From: a virus
Taxonomy: Duplodnaviria; Heunggongvirae; Uroviricota; Caudoviricetes
Reading direction: 5' to 3' (one strand)
IMG/VR virus record: IMGVR_UViG_2537561945_000004
DNA: 42,538 nucleotides
Shown here: positions 5,442 through 36,840 of the stretch, in pieces
Numbering within the stretch: the stretch's first letter is position 1
How the letters are laid out: each line of letters begins with the position of its first letter
Position numbers and translations under genes: made by a program
Notes under the pieces: model-generated
The model's database searches: none
What the model saw: only the letters and a program-made list of their open reading frames with translations
Told to the model about the DNA's origin: nothing

Positions 5442-5458
5442 ATTACCTTTATGGTAAT
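5442..5458. promoter_or_regulatory. Operator-like palindrome ATTACC-TTTAT-GGTAAT
   Basis: Perfect inverted repeat TTACC-N5-GGTAA, upstream of the LexA box and the 5534 gene. Confidence 0.5.
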
Positions 5459-5494
5459 TTGCAAAACGTGCTGGATAGCAAACAAATTATTTGA

Positions 5495-5514
5495 TACTGT
5501 ATAAATATACAGTT
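5495..5514. promoter_or_regulatory. LexA (SOS) box
   Basis: TACTGTATAAATATACAGTT matches the E. coli LexA consensus TACTGTATATATATACAGTA (CTGT-N8-ACAG, 18/20), about 20 nt upstream of the GGAGAAG RBS of the 5534 gene. Confidence 0.7.
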
Positions 5515-5533
5515 ATTGCATGGAGAAGATAAG

Positions 5534-5791
5534 ATGCAGCGGTATCACTATCCACTGGAAGACGGATTTACCGAAAGGATTCACACGCCGGGAGGCGTCA
5601 GGTCACTGGTGGAGGGATCGCACTTGATGAAATTACTCCGGGATCTCGATAAGGATGGATTTAATGTCGATGGCCCACTTGCCGAACTGACTGCACTGAT
5701 TAACTACGTCACCAGCTCACAGATGTCTATGCAGGATCTGCAAACACATCTCGACTATTGTGCCGAACAATTACGAAAACAAACCCGGTAA
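5534..5791 (+). CDS. Small antirepressor-like protein (paralog of the C-terminal domain of the 6939-7651 antirepressor), likely SOS-controlled
   Basis: ATG 5534 with GGAGAAG RBS (track ORF starts at upstream TTG 5516); 85 aa; clear similarity to the C-terminal part of the Bro-N antirepressor (LMKLL..L..DG..V.G..AELT......V......DLQTH..Y); LexA box directly upstream. Confidence 0.5.
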   Translation: MQRYHYPLEDGFTERIHTPGGVRSLVEGSHLMKLLRDLDKDGFNVDGPLAELTALINYVTSSQMSMQDLQTHLDYCAEQLRKQTR

Positions 5792-5797
5792 ATTTAA

Positions 5798-5813
5798 AGG
5801 CCGCAAGAGCGGC
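5798..5813. terminator. Bidirectional hairpin between convergent genes
   Basis: GGCCGC-AAGA-GCGGCC hairpin flanked by A/T runs between 5791 (+ gene end) and 5814 (- gene end). Confidence 0.5.
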
Positions 5814-6542
5814 CTATCGTTTCGCTTTGTGCTCATCCCAGCACGTTTTGCACCATGCCATTAAGCCGTCCGCATTTTGATTATTAGGGTAAAAGCTGGT
5901 TCGTTTTCTGCGGACATTACAAATTGGGCACCACTTCATATGGCGTGTATTCTTTGGGCCATCGAGACACCTTGCACACCACTTAGTCAATCCATCTGGA
6001 TTTTTTGACGATTTCCTGAATTTTTCATATGGAAGGTTTATTCTGCATCGCAAGCACTGCTTGCTACCACTTGAAACTCTGTTAGCTGATTCTTCTTTTG
6101 GCGGCGATACAGAAGGTATTCTTGCTGGCTCTGATACTGCCTGAGGTGCTTTTTTAGATGACTGAGACGATATGTCATCACCAGGGAATCTTCCATGATA
6201 TGCCGGACGCGTTGACACTCCAGGTGGAAGCTCAGCTGTAAACGGCTTTGGCTGAATCAGTTGCCTCTCTTTTGCTAACTCCTGCTGTTTATAATATGTC
6301 TGGATTACCGCACTATCATAAGCAGGAGGTGCGGAAATATCAGGCGCATTACCTCCAGTTTTTTGAAACTGAGTAGAGGTGTGTTCTATCACCTGTGTAC
6401 GATTAATCGTTATCTCCCCATCTTCGGTCTTTATCGTTTTGTTATGATTAACGACCGTACGATCAGAGATCTTAGTCTTGTTCTGGTTGATAACGTAAAT
6501 AATCACCGCAACCACACCAACAACTATCCAGAAAACTTCCAT
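5814..6542 (-). CDS. Membrane-anchored protein with tandem C-terminal zinc-ribbon repeats (accessory/moron gene, function unknown)
   Basis: GAGGAAAA RBS; N-terminal TM helix (VFWIVVGVVAVIIYVI), Pro/Ser/Gln-rich linker, two repeats of CxxC-x(18-22)-DGL-x(3)-WCxxC; moderately AT-rich. Confidence 0.6.
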   Translation of the reverse strand: MEVFWIVVGVVAVIIYVINQNKTKISDRTVVNHNKTIKTEDGEITINRTQVIEHTSTQFQKTGGNAPDISAPPAYDSAVIQTYYKQQELAKERQLIQPKPFTAELPPGVSTRPAYHGRFPGDDISSQSSKKAPQAVSEPARIPSVSPPKEESANRVSSGSKQCLRCRINLPYEKFRKSSKNPDGLTKWCARCLDGPKNTRHMKWCPICNVRRKRTSFYPNNQNADGLMAWCKTCWDEHKAKR

Positions 6543-6561
6543 TGCTTTTCCTCACAATAAC

Positions 6562-6578
6562 ATTACCTTAAAGGTAAT
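6562..6578. promoter_or_regulatory. Operator-like palindrome ATTACC-TTAAA-GGTAAT
   Basis: Perfect TTACC-N5-GGTAA, 21-37 nt upstream of the ATG of the 5814-6542 gene. Confidence 0.5.
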
Positions 6579-6654
6579 ATCTTGCTTTCAGGTGATCAAG
6601 CGTTAAACGTAATCAACCAAATGCGGTTGATTTTAATATTTATCCGCGCTTATC

Positions 6655-6671
6655 ATTACCTTTGCGGTAAA
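6655..6671. promoter_or_regulatory. Operator-like palindrome ATTACC-TTTGC-GGTAAA
   Basis: Perfect TTACC-N5-GGTAA at the start of the long leader upstream of the antirepressor gene. Confidence 0.5.
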
Positions 6672-6759
6672 TTTACATCGCACTCCTCTTGTGCCATAGT
6701 AATCGGGCACTGGCAAAATCCAGTGCCGGGATTGGCGTCCCGGGTTACTAAGTGGCGCA

Positions 6760-6787
6760 TACCACGCCAGACGTGGTTTTTTTATGC
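6760..6787 (+). terminator. Intrinsic terminator/attenuator inside antirepressor leader
   Basis: Hairpin ACCACG-CCAGA-CGTGGT followed by TTTTTTT; preceded by two further GC-rich hairpins (6704-6743). Confidence 0.5.
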
Positions 6788-6938
6788 GTTAAGCACAGCT
6801 ATATCCGAATTATGGTGGGCTGGGCAGGGGTCCGAAAGGACACCGGTACCACTTAGGCCGGTACGCCAACCTTGTCCAGTTCACCACCAGTAATTGGCGT
6901 TGCGGTGGTGATTAAAATCACTAAGTGGAGATAACCAC

Positions 6939-35665: not shown

Positions 35666-35681
35666 ATTACCTTTGAGGTAC
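35666..35681. promoter_or_regulatory. Operator-like palindrome variant ATTACC-TTTGA-GGTACG
   Basis: One-mismatch variant between the Cro-like terminator and the zinc-finger gene. Confidence 0.35.
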
Positions 35682-35687
35682 GAATAG

Positions 35688-35714
35688 ATATGAAAAGACC
35701 GCCGGATGGCGGTC
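35688..35714 (-). terminator. Terminator after Cro-like gene (tR1-like)
   Basis: On the minus strand GACCGCC-ATCC-GGCGGTC followed by TTTTCA. Confidence 0.5.
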
Positions 35715-35736
35715 TACAGAGGGTTGTGGCTGGATA

Positions 35737-35967
35737 TCATGAGTAGAAGAAGTATGCCAGTTCTGCTTTTGAGCGCAGCCATTGTCTTGTTTTACAGGCT
35801 TTAAAAAGCCCATTCATCAATACCTTACCTGGCATTTTGCGCTTACCTGTTAAGTGAGTCTGGATATAGTGACTCGTCGTTCCGGCTTCCTGTGCGAAGG
35901 CTTCACGCTCATCCGGAGTAAGTGCAAGCCAGTGCTTTTTGAAATCGAAATGTCCGTTATCGCTCAT
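35737..35967 (-). CDS. Cro-like small HTH regulator
   Basis: 76 aa, HTH-like segment EAGTTSHYIQTHLTGKRKMPGKVL; divergent from the repressor-like gene across an operator-bearing intergenic region. Confidence 0.5.
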   Translation of the reverse strand: MSDNGHFDFKKHWLALTPDEREAFAQEAGTTSHYIQTHLTGKRKMPGKVLMNGLFKACKTRQWLRSKAELAYFFYS

Positions 35968-36034
35968 AGCTATTGCCTGATATTTATTTCAGATAATAAA
36001 TATTCACCCATAAGGTAACAAAAATCAAGGATAG

Positions 36035-36066
36035 TTACCTGTGGGGTGCATTTACCTGTTGGGTAA
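36035..36066. promoter_or_regulatory. Immunity-region operators: TTACC-TGTGG-GGTGC (variant) and TTACC-TGTTG-GGTAA (perfect), plus half-site AGGTAAC at 36013
   Basis: Located in the 154-bp divergent intergenic region between the Cro-like and repressor-like genes. Confidence 0.55.
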
Positions 36067-36121
36067 TATTGCTTTAAATTGAATCATCTACTGATTCATA
36101 TATGAGGCGATTTTCCAGAAA

Positions 36122-36706
36122 ATGAAAAGTATCCAGGACGTCCGCAGGCAAAATCTCAACGACTTGATCGACCGTGAATGCAATGGTGTTCAGACGCGGA
36201 TGGCAGAAAAACTTGGAACTCAGGCAAATCTGGTAAACCGCTGGGCTCTTGGCAAGAAGGTTATCGGCGACCAGGTTGCACGAAAAATTGAAGCTGCCGC
36301 CAATAAACCCCGTAACTGGCTTGATATTGATCGTTCGCTTTCTCAGGAGGGTTTTCAGCCTGTCGGCCCGAGCGATATAGGTCAGCTGGCGGCTCACAAC
36401 CTGGAACGCTGGATGAGCGAAAGCCGCGACCTTTCAACACAGGGAAAACTTCACCGCGCATCCGGCGTCGCCCAGGTGACAATCAGCCGCCTGTTAAACA
36501 ATGAGGTCAGCGTTTCCATTTCCACCCTGGAGAATGTTGCATCCGCATTCGGGCGTCACGGCTATGAATTACTGATTCACCCGCACGACCCTGCGACCAT
36601 CAACTATGATCGCTCGCGCTACGCATTGTTACCCGAAACCGAGAAAGCAAAGATCGAAAGTTACATTGAATTTGTCATCAACCAGAACGAAAAAAACAAA
36701 CAATAA
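36122..36706 (+). CDS. Prophage repressor candidate: two HTH (XRE-like) domains, no S24 peptidase domain
   Basis: 194 aa; HTH segments MAEKLGTQANLVNRWALGKKVIGDQVARKIE and LHRASGVAQVTISRLLNNEVSVSISTLENVASAF; no Ser-Lys autocleavage module visible; divergent from Cro-like gene; followed by terminator. Confidence 0.55.
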   Translation: MKSIQDVRRQNLNDLIDRECNGVQTRMAEKLGTQANLVNRWALGKKVIGDQVARKIEAAANKPRNWLDIDRSLSQEGFQPVGPSDIGQLAAHNLERWMSESRDLSTQGKLHRASGVAQVTISRLLNNEVSVSISTLENVASAFGRHGYELLIHPHDPATINYDRSRYALLPETEKAKIESYIEFVINQNEKNKQ

Positions 36707-36727
36707 AACCATATTTTTCAGTAAGTA

Positions 36728-36751
36728 AGCCGCCTTATGGCGGCTTTTTTA
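36728..36751 (+). terminator. Rho-independent terminator after repressor gene
   Basis: AGCCGCC-TTAT-GGCGGCT followed by TTTTTT. Confidence 0.65.
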
Positions 36752-36762
36752 TTGTCTATTCG

Positions 36763-36779
36763 ATTACCTAACGGGTAAT
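36763..36779. promoter_or_regulatory. Operator-like palindrome ATTACC-TAACG-GGTAAT
   Basis: Perfect 17-bp palindrome just upstream of the early-left promoter. Confidence 0.5.
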
Positions 36780-36797
36780 TTTTTTAACTCATATCTA

Positions 36798-36840
36798 TTG
36801 ACATCAAACCATATACGCATAATTATTACCTCAACGGTAA
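36798..36840 (+). promoter_or_regulatory. Early-left promoter (-35 TTGACA 36798-36803, -10 AATTAT/TAATTA about 36820-36826) with overlapping operator TTACC-TCAAC-GGTAA (36826-36840)
   Basis: Consensus -35, 16-17 bp spacer, AT-rich -10, operator palindrome at -10/+1, followed by GAGG RBS and ATG 36860. Confidence 0.5.

Follow-up and report, generated by a model that had tools for sequence, protein, structure and literature searches.

What reads a palindrome that stands before nearly every operon of a prophage, and is such an arrangement new? A sequence-only reading of a 42,538-nucleotide stretch of viral DNA (the window hereafter, at its full length) had listed copies of TTACC-N5-GGTAA at most operon starts, assigned them tentatively to one DNA-binding protein, and regarded the design as unlike classical lambda and closer to stoperator control.

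Identity of the element and prior annotation

By its 97–100% identity to phiV10-type phages and prophages at guaA, the window is classified as a Uetakevirus prophage of the phiV10/ε15 type, inserted in E. coli at guaA. The palindrome is already known, being the annotated operator of the master repressor of ε15/phiV10-type phages, and occurs on almost every phage promoter. The ε15 record (AY150271.2) holds seven "protein_bind, repressor, lysogeny" features, each a perfect match to the motif and one of them before the small terminase gene; the phiV10 record has no operator annotation. The arrangement is not new; it stands annotated in ε15, the type phage of the genus.

Motif enumeration and coding context

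Both strands of the whole window were scanned exhaustively for TTACC-N5-GGTAA with 0–1 mismatches, and counts were compared with shuffled sequence. The scan returned 10 perfect sites (5443, 6563, 6656, 26585, 30121, 33659, 33721, 36052, 36764 and 36826) against a shuffled mean of 0.02, and 16 sites with at most one mismatch against 0.76 expected. The same word also ranked first in the window (10 copies) when every 5-Nx-5 palindrome was scanned de novo, and the runner-up (4 copies) was a sub-word of the same sites. A 15 kb host flank used as a control contained a single one-mismatch match, the chance level. The repeated palindrome is real and far above chance.

The coordinates read by eye were right; where they are one base lower, the count began with the A that precedes TTACC. 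Of the variants listed there, three (7717, 27201 and 35667) have one mismatch, but the fourth, 36035 (TTACCTGTGGGGTGC), has two, and two one-mismatch sites had been overlooked: 30103, which adjoins 30121, and 36004, within the cro promoter. The sixth one-mismatch match, 5161, lies inside the tailspike gene with a GC-rich spacer and agrees with the approximately one match expected by chance. Against a gene map spanning 90.4% of the window (non-coding, 9.6%), 15 of the 16 sites were fully intergenic (10/10 perfect, 5/6 one-mismatch); 27 of the 28 additional two-mismatch matches were coding, which is background behavior. The scan against shuffles and open reading frames that the sequence-only reading had proposed as a check thus came out in its favor, and its statement that all sites are intergenic holds only if terS starts at ATG 30100 instead of the RefSeq TTG 30181.

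Rep, Ant and the proposed reader of the motif

The proposed reader is listed here:

36122–36706, plus strand: rep, 194-aa putative master repressor and proposed motif binder, by homology to PDB 5D50_A

In ε15/phiV10-type phages Rep is the master repressor of lysogeny; we consider A-TTACC-W5-GGTAA-T very probably its operator, and infer from homology and the ε15 annotation that Rep binds it. Rep matches the SPC32H Repressor (5D50_A) over its full length (E 4.9e-41, residues 1–190), and ε15 annotates the same word as repressor-binding sites, both of which favor the first of the two candidates named from the sequence, the 36122–36706 product. Its layout comprises an N-terminal Cro/CI-type helix-turn-helix (HTH), a middle HTH_3-like domain and a C-terminal tetramerization/Ant-binding region; the Pfam search gave HTH_3 at 106–147 and a weak HTH at 21–61, and found no peptidase S24 domain. 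Rep is only 41–42% identical to the Salmonella proteins (ε15/SPC32H). Across 18 diverse homologs the helix NL(V/I)(N/S)RW retains L37, R40 and W41 invariantly and N36 nearly so, and these recognition-helix residues are kept although overall Rep identity drops to 40%. SPC32H Rep is ordered as DNA-binding, dimerization and tetramerization domains (PMC9986798) and sits as a tetramer on palindromic DNA sites, the tetramer being broken by Ant (PMC9638917). The phage ZX5 repressor is 99.5% identical to the window's Rep, and its overexpression lowered holin and endolysin transcripts by >99.9% (PMC9782041).

The antirepressor region contains the following features (operators, here and below, come from the scan and are given without strand):

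5443–5457: perfect operator between the divergent ant and tailspike genes, 105 bp before ATG 5338 of the tailspike gene
5495–5513: perfect LexA box, TACTGTATAAATATACAGT, 21 bp before the ant ATG
5534–5791, plus strand: ant, 85-aa antirepressor and Rep partner (PDB 5D50_E, E 9.9e-47)
6940–7651, plus strand: BRO-N gene, "frameshifted" in RefSeq, a second, inactivated antirepressor

The 5443 operator has an orthologous site in 6/6 phages. Six phages share, without change, the ACTGTAT of the LexA box and the ACA of its distal arm; five of the six also keep the distal G. Ant is 87% identical to SPC32H Ant, and the C-terminal part of the BRO-N gene (7337–7651) is an Ant-like domain with 39% identity to Ant.

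Operators of the immunity region and the 62-bp pairs

The sites are densest between rep and cro and around P_L; the DUF1064 pair is listed with them:

35667–35681: operator, one mismatch (GGTAC), directly after the cro terminator (35715–35696)
35737–35967, minus strand: cro-like gene for a 76-aa protein, divergent from rep, possible second operator user by sequence comparison
36004–36018: OR1, TCACCCATAAGGTAA, one mismatch, within the cro promoter spacer and −10
36035–36049: OR2, TTACCTGTGGGGTGC, two mismatches, supported by orthology
36052–36066: OR3, perfect
36764–36778: OL distal operator, perfect
36798–36826, plus strand: P_L promoter, TTGACA-17-AATTAT, by consensus match
36826–36840: OL proximal operator, perfect, 62 bp from its distal partner
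33721–33735: distal operator of the DUF1064 promoter, perfect, directly after the terminator behind gene P
33659–33673: proximal operator of the DUF1064 promoter, perfect, 62 bp from the distal one

The cro promoter has TTGATT as its −35, and the TTGATTTTT block with the OR1 operator is kept in six phages. OR2, 17 bp from OR3, is degenerate in the E. coli/Enterobacter lineage, and its ortholog is perfect in ε15, SPC32H and BUCT711. The rep-proximal edge of OR3 overlaps a conserved TAATAT, a candidate −10 of the rep promoter. Beyond cro, the 35667 operator stands upstream of the small-protein/DnaT-like/P unit; after it come a conserved −35-like block, TTGATC, and, ~60 bp downstream, an (A/T)TAACC/ATTACC half-site.

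Two window promoters lie between paired operators whose spacing is exactly 62 bp. At P_L the distal operator lies just past the rep terminator (36727–36746), its center ~60 bp upstream of the start; the −10 ends on the first base of the proximal operator, which spans the start region of the early-left operon (ATG 36860). Both CTATTGAC and ATTAT+TACC are invariant here in six phages. The 33659 operator abuts a −10-like TTTAAT; the Shine-Dalgarno sequence falls within it, and 3 nt separate its end from the DUF1064 ATG (33655). Across six genomes the 62-bp spacing recurs 11 times, with one further pair at 63 bp. For a protein-bridged DNA loop, 62 bp is very short.

The Cro-like protein is the other regulator of this region, and it may use some or all of the operators. 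That it alone reads them as a global shut-off in the lytic phase, with Rep recognizing something else, we regard as improbable. The Cro-like protein is more conserved than Rep (76–84% against 42–77% identity in the same four related phages; 58% against 44% in Klebsiella BUCT711), and its HTH-like AGTTSHYIQ...HLT, invariant in 5/5 related phages compared, would suit an invariant operator equally well; Pfam and PDB searches with this protein gave no match. Covariation separates neither protein, the motif being invariant across the Rep family. Against exclusive use by Cro, the ε15 annotators gave the sites to the repressor, SPC32H Rep is reported on palindromic sites as a tetramer (PMC9638917), paired sites suit a regulator with two pairs of DNA-binding domains, and overexpressed Rep silences late genes (PMC9782041). 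In the telomere phage φKO2, Cro binds just one of the repressor's operators (PMC4997575), beside which use by Cro only, or sharing of all sites, would be an exception.

Late and accessory operators

Outside the immunity region, the remaining sites are:

30121–30135: terS operator 1, perfect, abutting an invariant extended −10, TG-n-TACTAT
30103–30117: terS operator 2, one mismatch, 18 bp from operator 1
27201–27215: operator, one mismatch (GGTAT), over a promoter spacer and −10 (TATAAT)
26585–26599: operator, perfect, 105 bp upstream of the gp3-like/portal operon
7717–7731: operator, one mismatch (GGTGA), on whose position 1 TGTACA-18-TACTAT ends
6656–6670: operator, perfect, abutting TTGATT-18-TATCAT, upstream of the BRO-N/Ant-like gene
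6563–6577: operator, perfect, with TTGATC-17-TACCTT, the −10 within the operator

The terS pair also occurs in phiV10, ε15 and Tyrion. Operator 1 lies downstream of a terminator (30172–30155); the GGTGG ribosome-binding site is part of operator 2, whose end is 2 nt from ATG 30100, the start annotated in ε15, SPC32H and Tyrion. With the RefSeq start, the terminator upstream of this ATG falls within the terS coding sequence.

From the 26585-type operator to the gp3 ATG the distance is 105–106 bp in 6/6 phages, and on the plus strand this operator carries TACCTT 17 bp after a conserved TTGACA aimed at tRNA-Arg. At the gp3 and tailspike operons the best promoter-like block contains only a GGTAAT half-site; since the full operator is ~30–40 bp upstream of it, direct repression is less clear at these two.

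Sites 6563, 27201 and 7717 are extra operators for lineage-specific accessory genes: a zinc-ribbon membrane protein gene (5814–6542, minus strand) 21 bp downstream of the first, a 272-aa gene (27220–28038) served by the promoter of the second, and a DUF4760 unit downstream of the third, which itself follows the bro pseudogene. Both this prophage and phiV10 carry the 27201 15-mer unchanged as their P_int operator, and the 15-mer at 6656 recurs unchanged in phiV10 at 20497.

Conservation across relatives

A comparison with related prophages, also proposed in the sequence-only reading, found the same word at orthologous positions across the genus, in phiV10, ε15, SPC32H, Tyrion, BUCT711 and Cronobacter, Serratia and E. 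coli prophages; the host genera are Escherichia, Salmonella, Klebsiella, Enterobacter, Cronobacter and Serratia. In alignments the operators are invariant islands amid diverged intergenic DNA. Over 79 perfect sites from nine genomes the 5+5 bases are constant and the spacer is variable, with a strongly A/T center (middle base 96% A/T). Among the phages compared, a site precedes the lysis genes only where the late operon is split by an O-antigen module on the opposite strand; the window lacks a lysis-cassette site because that module is absent.

These patterns bear on a host transcription factor, or another phage regulator of the early-left operon (MarR-like, AlpA-like or PerC-like), as the reader of the sites, which we judge about as improbable as exclusive use by Cro. 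The window does encode these three further small DNA-binding proteins. The motif is kept in prophages of six host genera, which favors a phage-encoded factor over a host one, and the host flank holds just the one chance-level match. The rep–cro and P_L clusters occupy the classical position of immunity operators, and ε15 has its sites annotated to the repressor. The distribution of PerC and MarR-like genes is uneven; Serratia prophage L009 is without PerC, yet has seven perfect sites.

Least probable by a further step is that the palindromes are small 5′-leader RNA hairpins for processing, stability or translation control: several sites do lie within 5′ leaders and include the ribosome-binding site, and 21-nt site-centered stretches fold at −3.5 to −6.4 kcal/mol (z −1.5 to −3.3 against shuffles), but any palindrome would fold so, the 79 sites conserve half-site sequence rather than pairing, the variants GGTAT, GGTAC, GGTGA and TCACC break a pair without a compensating change, OR1 and the distal member of each 62-bp pair, being upstream of or within promoters, would not be transcribed from them, and the A/T-rich spacer center is typical of protein-bent operator DNA.

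Proposed wiring

Operator function with Rep as the reader is the preferred explanation. Sites accompany the rep/cro, early-left, replication, DUF1064-to-gp49, terS/terL, gp3 and tRNA, ant/tailspike and bro units and two morons. Homology, annotation and footprinting support a design in which one phage repressor would be wired to nearly all transcription units. This was the main idea of the earlier reading, and the ε15 annotation, Rep homology and genus-wide site conservation all point to it. Sites overlap or abut candidate −10 elements, with promoters assigned by consensus matching and some −10s weak (TTTAAT, TACCTT). The last base of the −10 is shared with the following operator at P_L, the DUF1064 promoter, terS, bro and 7717; the −10 (TACCTT) is within the operator at the tRNA-side promoter and the zinc-ribbon accessory gene; and the operator extends across spacer and −10 at the cro promoter, the 272-aa accessory gene and P_int, just outside the window. 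Close pairs, 17–18 bp apart, occur at terS and OR3/OR2.

Alongside the motif statistics, site placement, conservation and Rep and Ant homology shown above, we propose that each operator would be bound by a pair of Rep N-terminal HTH domains, at positions where bound Rep would exclude RNA polymerase. Because SPC32H Rep is a tetramer, two HTH pairs would be available and two operators could be held at once, so that Rep may bridge paired sites; the Cro-like protein might use some sites. In the lysogen, Rep would silence essentially all prophage units in parallel, and induction would proceed through LexA-controlled Ant, which disassembles the Rep tetramer in SPC32H.

Comparison with known systems

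The window shares with ε15 and SPC32H the genus, gene order and guaA attachment region, Rep and Ant homologous to the crystallized SPC32H proteins, a LexA box before ant, and the identical operator word at orthologous terS, gp3, tailspike/ant, P_L and post-replication promoters. It differs in its 41–42% identical Rep, degenerate OR2, extra accessory-gene sites and absence of a lysis-cassette site, and in lacking their third P_L operator and leader hairpin.

The contrast drawn with classical lambda does not extend to the immunity core, which is lambda-like: the repressor and cro-like genes diverge from an interval with three operators (OR1 in the cro promoter, OR3 over the repressor −10), a second operator group lies at the leftward early promoter, and the operators are palindromes of 15–17 bp. 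Unlike in lambda, operators reach beyond the immunity region to late, integrase and accessory promoters, a RecA-stimulated autocleavage domain is missing from the repressor and induction would run through an antirepressor, and a Q-type late antiterminator was not identified in the window.

P1 C1 is one repressor over many scattered operons, including the antirepressor system and regulators of late functions, and several P1 promoters have paired operators; these operators are asymmetric, 17 bp long, and late genes are controlled indirectly through the activator Lpa. The window resembles P1 in its proposed single repressor, many dispersed operons and paired operators, but C1 is unrelated in sequence and the window's operators are directly at terS. 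The stoperators of L5 and Bxb1 are asymmetric 13–14-bp sites, strictly oriented to transcription, that block elongating polymerase away from promoters. Many genome-wide copies of one repressor site, including at co-directional gene junctions (four in the window, each just after a terminator), are common to both; the stoperator analogy nonetheless fails, as the window's sites are symmetric, are not orientation-dependent and coincide with promoter −10 or start regions. IncP KorA/KorB has symmetric operators of one repressor at many promoters with cooperative action (PMC2665229); the analogy is functional only, the system being a plasmid rather than a phage and its proteins unrelated.

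Distribution of the operator motif

Both strands of the 42.5-kb window were scanned for the palindrome TTACC-N5-GGTAA, with the expectation for perfect copies taken from dinucleotide-preserving shuffles. The scan returned 10 perfect sites against 0.02 expected and 16 sites with at most one mismatch against 0.76 expected, which bears out the abundance noted by eye in the sequence-only reading; the motif also came first in a de novo tally of all 5-Nx-5 palindromes in the window. The coordinates in that reading were correct, some of them starting at the flanking A of ATTACC, and its list of variants stands apart from 36035, which has two mismatches rather than one, and from 30103 and 36004, which it had overlooked.

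The gene map combined the ORF list with RefSeq annotation taken over from an identical prophage. When the coding-versus-intergenic count proposed in the sequence-only reading was run on this map, the non-coding 9.6% of the window held every perfect site (10 of 10) and, with at most one mismatch allowed, 15 of 16 sites, while 27 of the 28 further two-mismatch matches were coding, which is how background matches behave. The one-mismatch-class match at 5161 was dismissed as chance: it is coding, lies within the tailspike gene, has a GC-rich spacer, and its count fits the chance expectation.

Prior annotation in phage ε15

The prophage belongs to the genus Uetakevirus, whose type phage is Salmonella phage ε15. 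The ε15 GenBank record (AY150271.2) carries seven features labeled "protein_bind, repressor, lysogeny":

Annotated repressor sites of ε15 (AY150271.2 coordinates)
12-27
2931-2947
19895-19911
32479-32494
32554-32570
32616-32632
35906-35922

All seven coincide with perfect TTACC-N5-GGTAA sites, so the dispersed layout, which stood out in the sequence-only reading, had already been recognised by the ε15 annotators (AY150271.2). Among the annotated sites, one directly precedes the small terminase gene, another lies ahead of gp3, and a further one separates gp19 from the tailspike gene. This annotation is incomplete: perfect sites in ε15 number 11, with 4 more that have one mismatch, and the two perfect ones in the rep-cro interval are left out; the one-mismatch site at 11654 is probably chance. 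The phiV10 record has no operator annotation. The ε15 genome paper is said to give a 17-bp consensus of this form, and full-text searches of the open-access literature found no open description of the motif tied to ε15 or Uetakevirus. The regulon of TTACC-N5-GGTAA operators is thus a correct finding that was already known. What may go beyond the record annotation is a complete list of sites for phiV10-type prophages, the three ways in which promoter and operator are arranged, the 62-bp brackets throughout the genus, and an operator word that is invariant across Rep proteins only 40% identical.

Conservation of the operators across phages

Perfect sites numbered 8 in phiV10, 11 in ε15, 10 in SPC32H, 9 in Klebsiella phage BUCT711 and 9 in Enterobacter phage Tyrion, and at most one mismatch gave 13-18 sites in each of these genomes, compared with 0.4-0.7 expected from shuffles. 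Distant Rep homologues led to 20-kb stretches from Cronobacter, from Serratia and from a second E. coli prophage, and in these too the motif ranked first among palindromes. From 76 distinct perfect sites, symmetrised, we obtained the consensus A-TTACC-WWWWW-GGTAA-T, with a spacer that is 79% A/T and a centre base that is 96% A/T.

In alignments of six phages, the operators are invariant islands amid diverged intergenic DNA. Orthologous operators were aligned at P_L (the early-left promoter), the DUF1064 promoter, gp3, tailspike/ant, terS, the OR cluster between rep and cro, and downstream of cro. The search of related phages suggested in the sequence-only reading thereby placed the operators at orthologous positions and at fixed distances from conserved genes; ahead of gp3, for example, the distance from operator to ATG is 105-106 bp in every one of the six. 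The lysis genes are preceded by a site in ε15, phiV10, SPC32H and Tyrion, where an O-antigen module on the opposite strand divides the tailspike and holin genes, and lack one in the window and BUCT711, where they directly follow the tailspike gene. This distribution is a natural experiment that supports one operator set per transcription unit.

Candidate regulators

Regulatory genes and LexA box of the window
36122-36706, Rep, 194-aa repressor
35737-35967, Cro-like protein, 76 aa
5534-5791, Ant, 85-aa antirepressor
5495-5513, perfect LexA box TACTGTATAAATATACAGT, 21 bp upstream of the ant ATG, kept in six phages

Rep matches the SPC32H Repressor (PDB 5D50_A, E 4.9e-41) over residues 1-190 of 194 and is 42-43% identical to the ε15 and SPC32H Rep proteins by multiple alignment (41-42% by tblastn). 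It has an N-terminal Cro/CI-type helix-turn-helix followed by a middle HTH_3-like domain; Pfam returned HTH families only, with no S24 peptidase (autocleavage) domain. Ant matches the antirepressor chain of the same structure (PDB 5D50_E, E 9.9e-47) and is 87% identical to SPC32H Ant. Separately, a frameshifted BRO-N gene (6940-7651) ends in an Ant-like C-terminal domain (7337-7651) with 39% identity to Ant, which means that a second antirepressor, fused to Bro, has been lost from the prophage.

SPC32H Rep, in which the DNA-binding domain is followed by a dimerisation and then a tetramerisation domain (PMC9986798), binds palindromic DNA sites as a tetramer with paired DNA-binding domains from different dimers, and tetrameric Ant breaks this tetramer (PMC9638917). 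Phage ZX5 has a Rep 99.5% identical to that of the window, and overexpression of the ZX5 repressor abolished free phage and lowered transcript levels by 99.99% for endolysin and 99.97% for holin (PMC9782041). Together with the ε15 annotation, which names the repressor, both the tetrameric binding of SPC32H Rep and the ZX5 transcript loss speak against the Cro-like protein as sole binder of the motif, and this explanation is disfavoured. The Cro-like protein may nevertheless share some of Rep's sites. The Rep recognition helix and the Cro-like protein are both conserved and the operator word is unvarying, so that site use by the two proteins is indistinguishable from sequence. No protein-operator covariation was found among the Cronobacter, Serratia and E. 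coli Rep relatives, where the motif is identical even with NLVSRW and NLISRW helices, which leaves the covariation test without power; a search with the Rep N-terminal domain alone returned only fragments. In the telomere phage φKO2, only one of the repressor's operators is bound by Cro (PMC4997575), so full sharing of sites is not to be assumed here.

Binding by a host factor or another phage regulator is also disfavoured, because the motif is missing from the flanking host DNA, spans six host genera, and is still present in a Serratia prophage without PerC. The palindromes do fold as RNA, weakly (-3.5 to -6.4 kcal/mol), but what is conserved is base sequence and not pairing, no mismatched variant has a compensating change, and several of the sites precede their promoters; a role as RNA hairpins was rejected.

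Operator geometry at promoters

Promoters were assigned by consensus matching and are candidate elements.

Candidate promoters and their operators
P_L (36798-36840), TTGACA-17-AATTAT then TACC; -10 ends on operator position 1
DUF1064 promoter, TTGATT-17-TTTAAT then TACC; -10 ends on operator position 1
terS promoter, invariant extended -10 TG-n-TACTAT then TACC; -10 ends on operator position 1
bro promoter, TTGATT-18-TATCAT; -10 ends on operator position 1
7717 promoter, TGTACA-18-TACTAT; -10 ends on operator position 1
26585 promoter, + strand, conserved TTGACA, -10 TACCTT inside the operator; points to tRNA-Arg
6563 promoter, - strand, TTGATC, -10 TACCTT inside the operator; before a zinc-ribbon accessory gene
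OR1, operator across the spacer and -10 of the cro promoter
27201-27215, TTACCTTAAAGGTAT, operator across spacer and -10, mismatch GGTAT makes TATAAT; before a 272-aa accessory gene (27220)
P_int operator, equivalent to window 42581-42595 (43 bp past the window end), TTACCTTAAAGGTAT, the same 15-mer as at 27201; mismatch forms the -10

All six phages have a GGTAT-type one-mismatch operator at this position ahead of int; in phiV10 and SPC32H it is the very 15-mer TTACCTTAAAGGTAT. An operator pair spaced exactly 62 bp brackets P_L, and another brackets the DUF1064 promoter; this spacing occurs 11 times across the six genomes, with one further pair at 63 bp; the terS operators are 18 bp apart. 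At four co-directional gene junctions the order is terminator, operator(s), promoter, so that the "early-right operon" breaks down into a series of units, each repressible on its own.

Confidence in direct repression is lowest at the gp3 and tailspike operons, where the complete operator precedes a conserved block with no more than a half-site:

Half-site block (A/T)TCATAT(G/A)TGGTT-N5-GGTAATA (nearly invariant in six phages)
26520-26545, - strand, leader of the gp3/portal operon; lone half-site ~70-75 bp before the ATG
5385-5413, - strand, leader of the tailspike gene; lone half-site ~70-75 bp before the ATG

This leader block may be a weak, activator-dependent late promoter, and σ70 assignments are ambiguous at P_ant, gp3 and tailspike alike. 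The candidate late-promoter consensus CATATGTGGTT was not enriched window-wide (14 matches with at most two mismatches compared with 12.3 expected); the matches with at most one mismatch all (5 of 5) fall in operator-bearing intergenic regions.

A tRNA-Arg gene (anticodon TCT) lies at 26921-26997, between terL and the head genes. Because it is downstream of the + strand TTGACA-17-TACCTT overlapping operator 26585, it may be Rep-repressed. Consensus matching also gave two sets of promoter-like hexamers in the "wrong" orientation, both with their last base on operator position 1: TTGATG-18-AAAAAT on the minus strand at 36764-36778, which would read antisense into rep, and CTGATA-16-AATATT on the + strand at 36004-36018, which would read toward rep. 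They may be additional regulated promoters or no more than chance matches.

Comparison with known systems

On each feature compared, the window system belongs to the ε15/SPC32H Rep-Ant-LexA family, with Rep binding predicted: its repressor is homologous to SPC32H/ε15 Rep over the full length, its operator word is identical to the annotated ε15 repressor sites, its sites occupy orthologous positions with the 62-bp pairs conserved, and it has a small Ant behind a LexA box and a Rep without an autocleavage domain.

The contrast with lambda drawn in the sequence-only reading holds for the dispersed operators. Antirepressor-based induction is a further departure from lambda, and the rep/cro core is lambda-like. 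As in the lambda immunity region, the divergent rep and cro genes are parted by three operators that overlap both promoters; OR1, OR2 and OR3 (36004/36035/36052) are spaced 31 and 17 bp, as are 33388/33358/33341 in ε15. A lambda-type region keeps its operators within the immunity region and runs its late genes through an antiterminator; unlike this, 10 of the 16 window sites lie outside the rep/cro/P_L region, two of them directly before terS, and Rep lacks the RecA-stimulated S24 autocleavage domain.

Mycobacteriophage stoperators are generally described as asymmetric, orientation-dependent sites that act away from promoters. Compared on symmetry, the window sites differ in being perfect 5+5 palindromes and not one-orientation elements, and on this feature the stoperator analogy is not upheld: the window system is not a stoperator system. 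The sites at 33659/33721, 35667, 30103/30121 and 7717 closely follow terminators at junctions of co-directional genes, and each abuts a promoter-like -10 by consensus matching. Phage P1 C1 has dispersed operators, and by analogy the window system would be functionally closer to these or to the KorA/KorB regulons of IncP plasmids (PMC2665229).

Proposed mechanism of repression and induction

Homology, the ε15 annotation and the literature suggest that a pair of Rep N-terminal helix-turn-helix domains binds each palindrome, and a Rep tetramer could hold two operators, either adjacent or as a 62-bp pair. Given the placement of the sites, RNA polymerase would be kept off nearly every prophage promoter. 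By homology with SPC32H, DNA damage would clear LexA from the ant promoter, after which Ant would take Rep tetramers apart and all units would fire together.

The 62-bp pairs (P_L, DUF1064) and the 17-18-bp pairs (terS, OR3/OR2) may be the DNA counterpart of the unusual "trans" pairing of the DNA-binding domains of tetrameric Rep, in which case a single tetramer would clamp a promoter within a very tight loop. Since the same word has to be kept at ~12 promoters, operator specificity may also stay frozen across the Rep family (40-100% identical, six host genera), which if true would lead to cross-immunity throughout the genus, as opposed to the diversified immunities of lambdoid phages. These two readings are linked, and jointly we regard them as possible but on the doubtful side. 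The mechanism of SPC32H-type repression "has not been extensively characterized" according to a 2023 structural paper (PMC9986798), and the conserved operator geometry offers a testable DNA-side model of repression by this tetrameric type of Rep.

terS start codon and a second palindrome

The terS gene of RefSeq and phiV10 (29507-30181, minus strand; TTG at 30181) would have both operators inside it, along with a rho-independent terminator. With GGTGG ahead of it, the ATG at 30100 matches the terS start annotated in ε15, SPC32H and Tyrion, and the RefSeq and phiV10 start is probably wrong, a correction that follows from the site mapping.

A second, perfectly conserved 12-bp palindrome, GTGACATGTCAC, was observed at the 3' ends of late transcription units, beside terminators:

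Occurrences of GTGACATGTCAC
Window, 30214-30225 and 10016-10027; 4891-4902 (probably chance)
ε15, 39612, 2142 and 19517
SPC32H, 38629, 2145 and 19634
phiV10, 2262 and 19493
Tyrion, 2702 and 20377
Comparison stretch L008, 2159, 2587 and 4923
Comparison stretch L010, 1525 and 4134

It follows the gp49-like gene, a short way ahead of the terS terminator, and also terL and the final structural gene. The palindrome could serve as a site for a late regulator or for a factor that acts on termination.

Prophage identity and accessory features

The prophage is integrated beside guaA, with the integrase gene at the right end of the window and host yfgH and yfgI at the left end. Its immunity region is 97-98% identical to that of Escherichia phage phiV10 and relatives and 100% identical in prophages of E. 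coli BE311 and three other strains; related sequence was found in 583 of 5426 complete E. coli genomes (~1 in 10). Operator mapping is mainly of use as better annotation, phiV10-type prophage records being without operators, and the site map tells which accessory genes the lysogen silences and which it does not, and supplies targets for lytic or reporter derivatives of phiV10.

An insertion sequence at ~8280-9610 interrupts the DUF4760 gene and has two overlapping ORFs of 136 and 301 aa, the first of which we take to resemble IS2 InsC. It is missing from the otherwise identical BE311 prophage, so window coordinates left of the insertion are shifted by ~1.34 kb relative to the BE311 record. Tandem repeats at 34934-35070, inside the DnaT-like replication gene, comprise a 24-bp unit (2.6 copies, 100% match) flanked by arrays of 12-bp and 18-bp period, and look like origin iterons.
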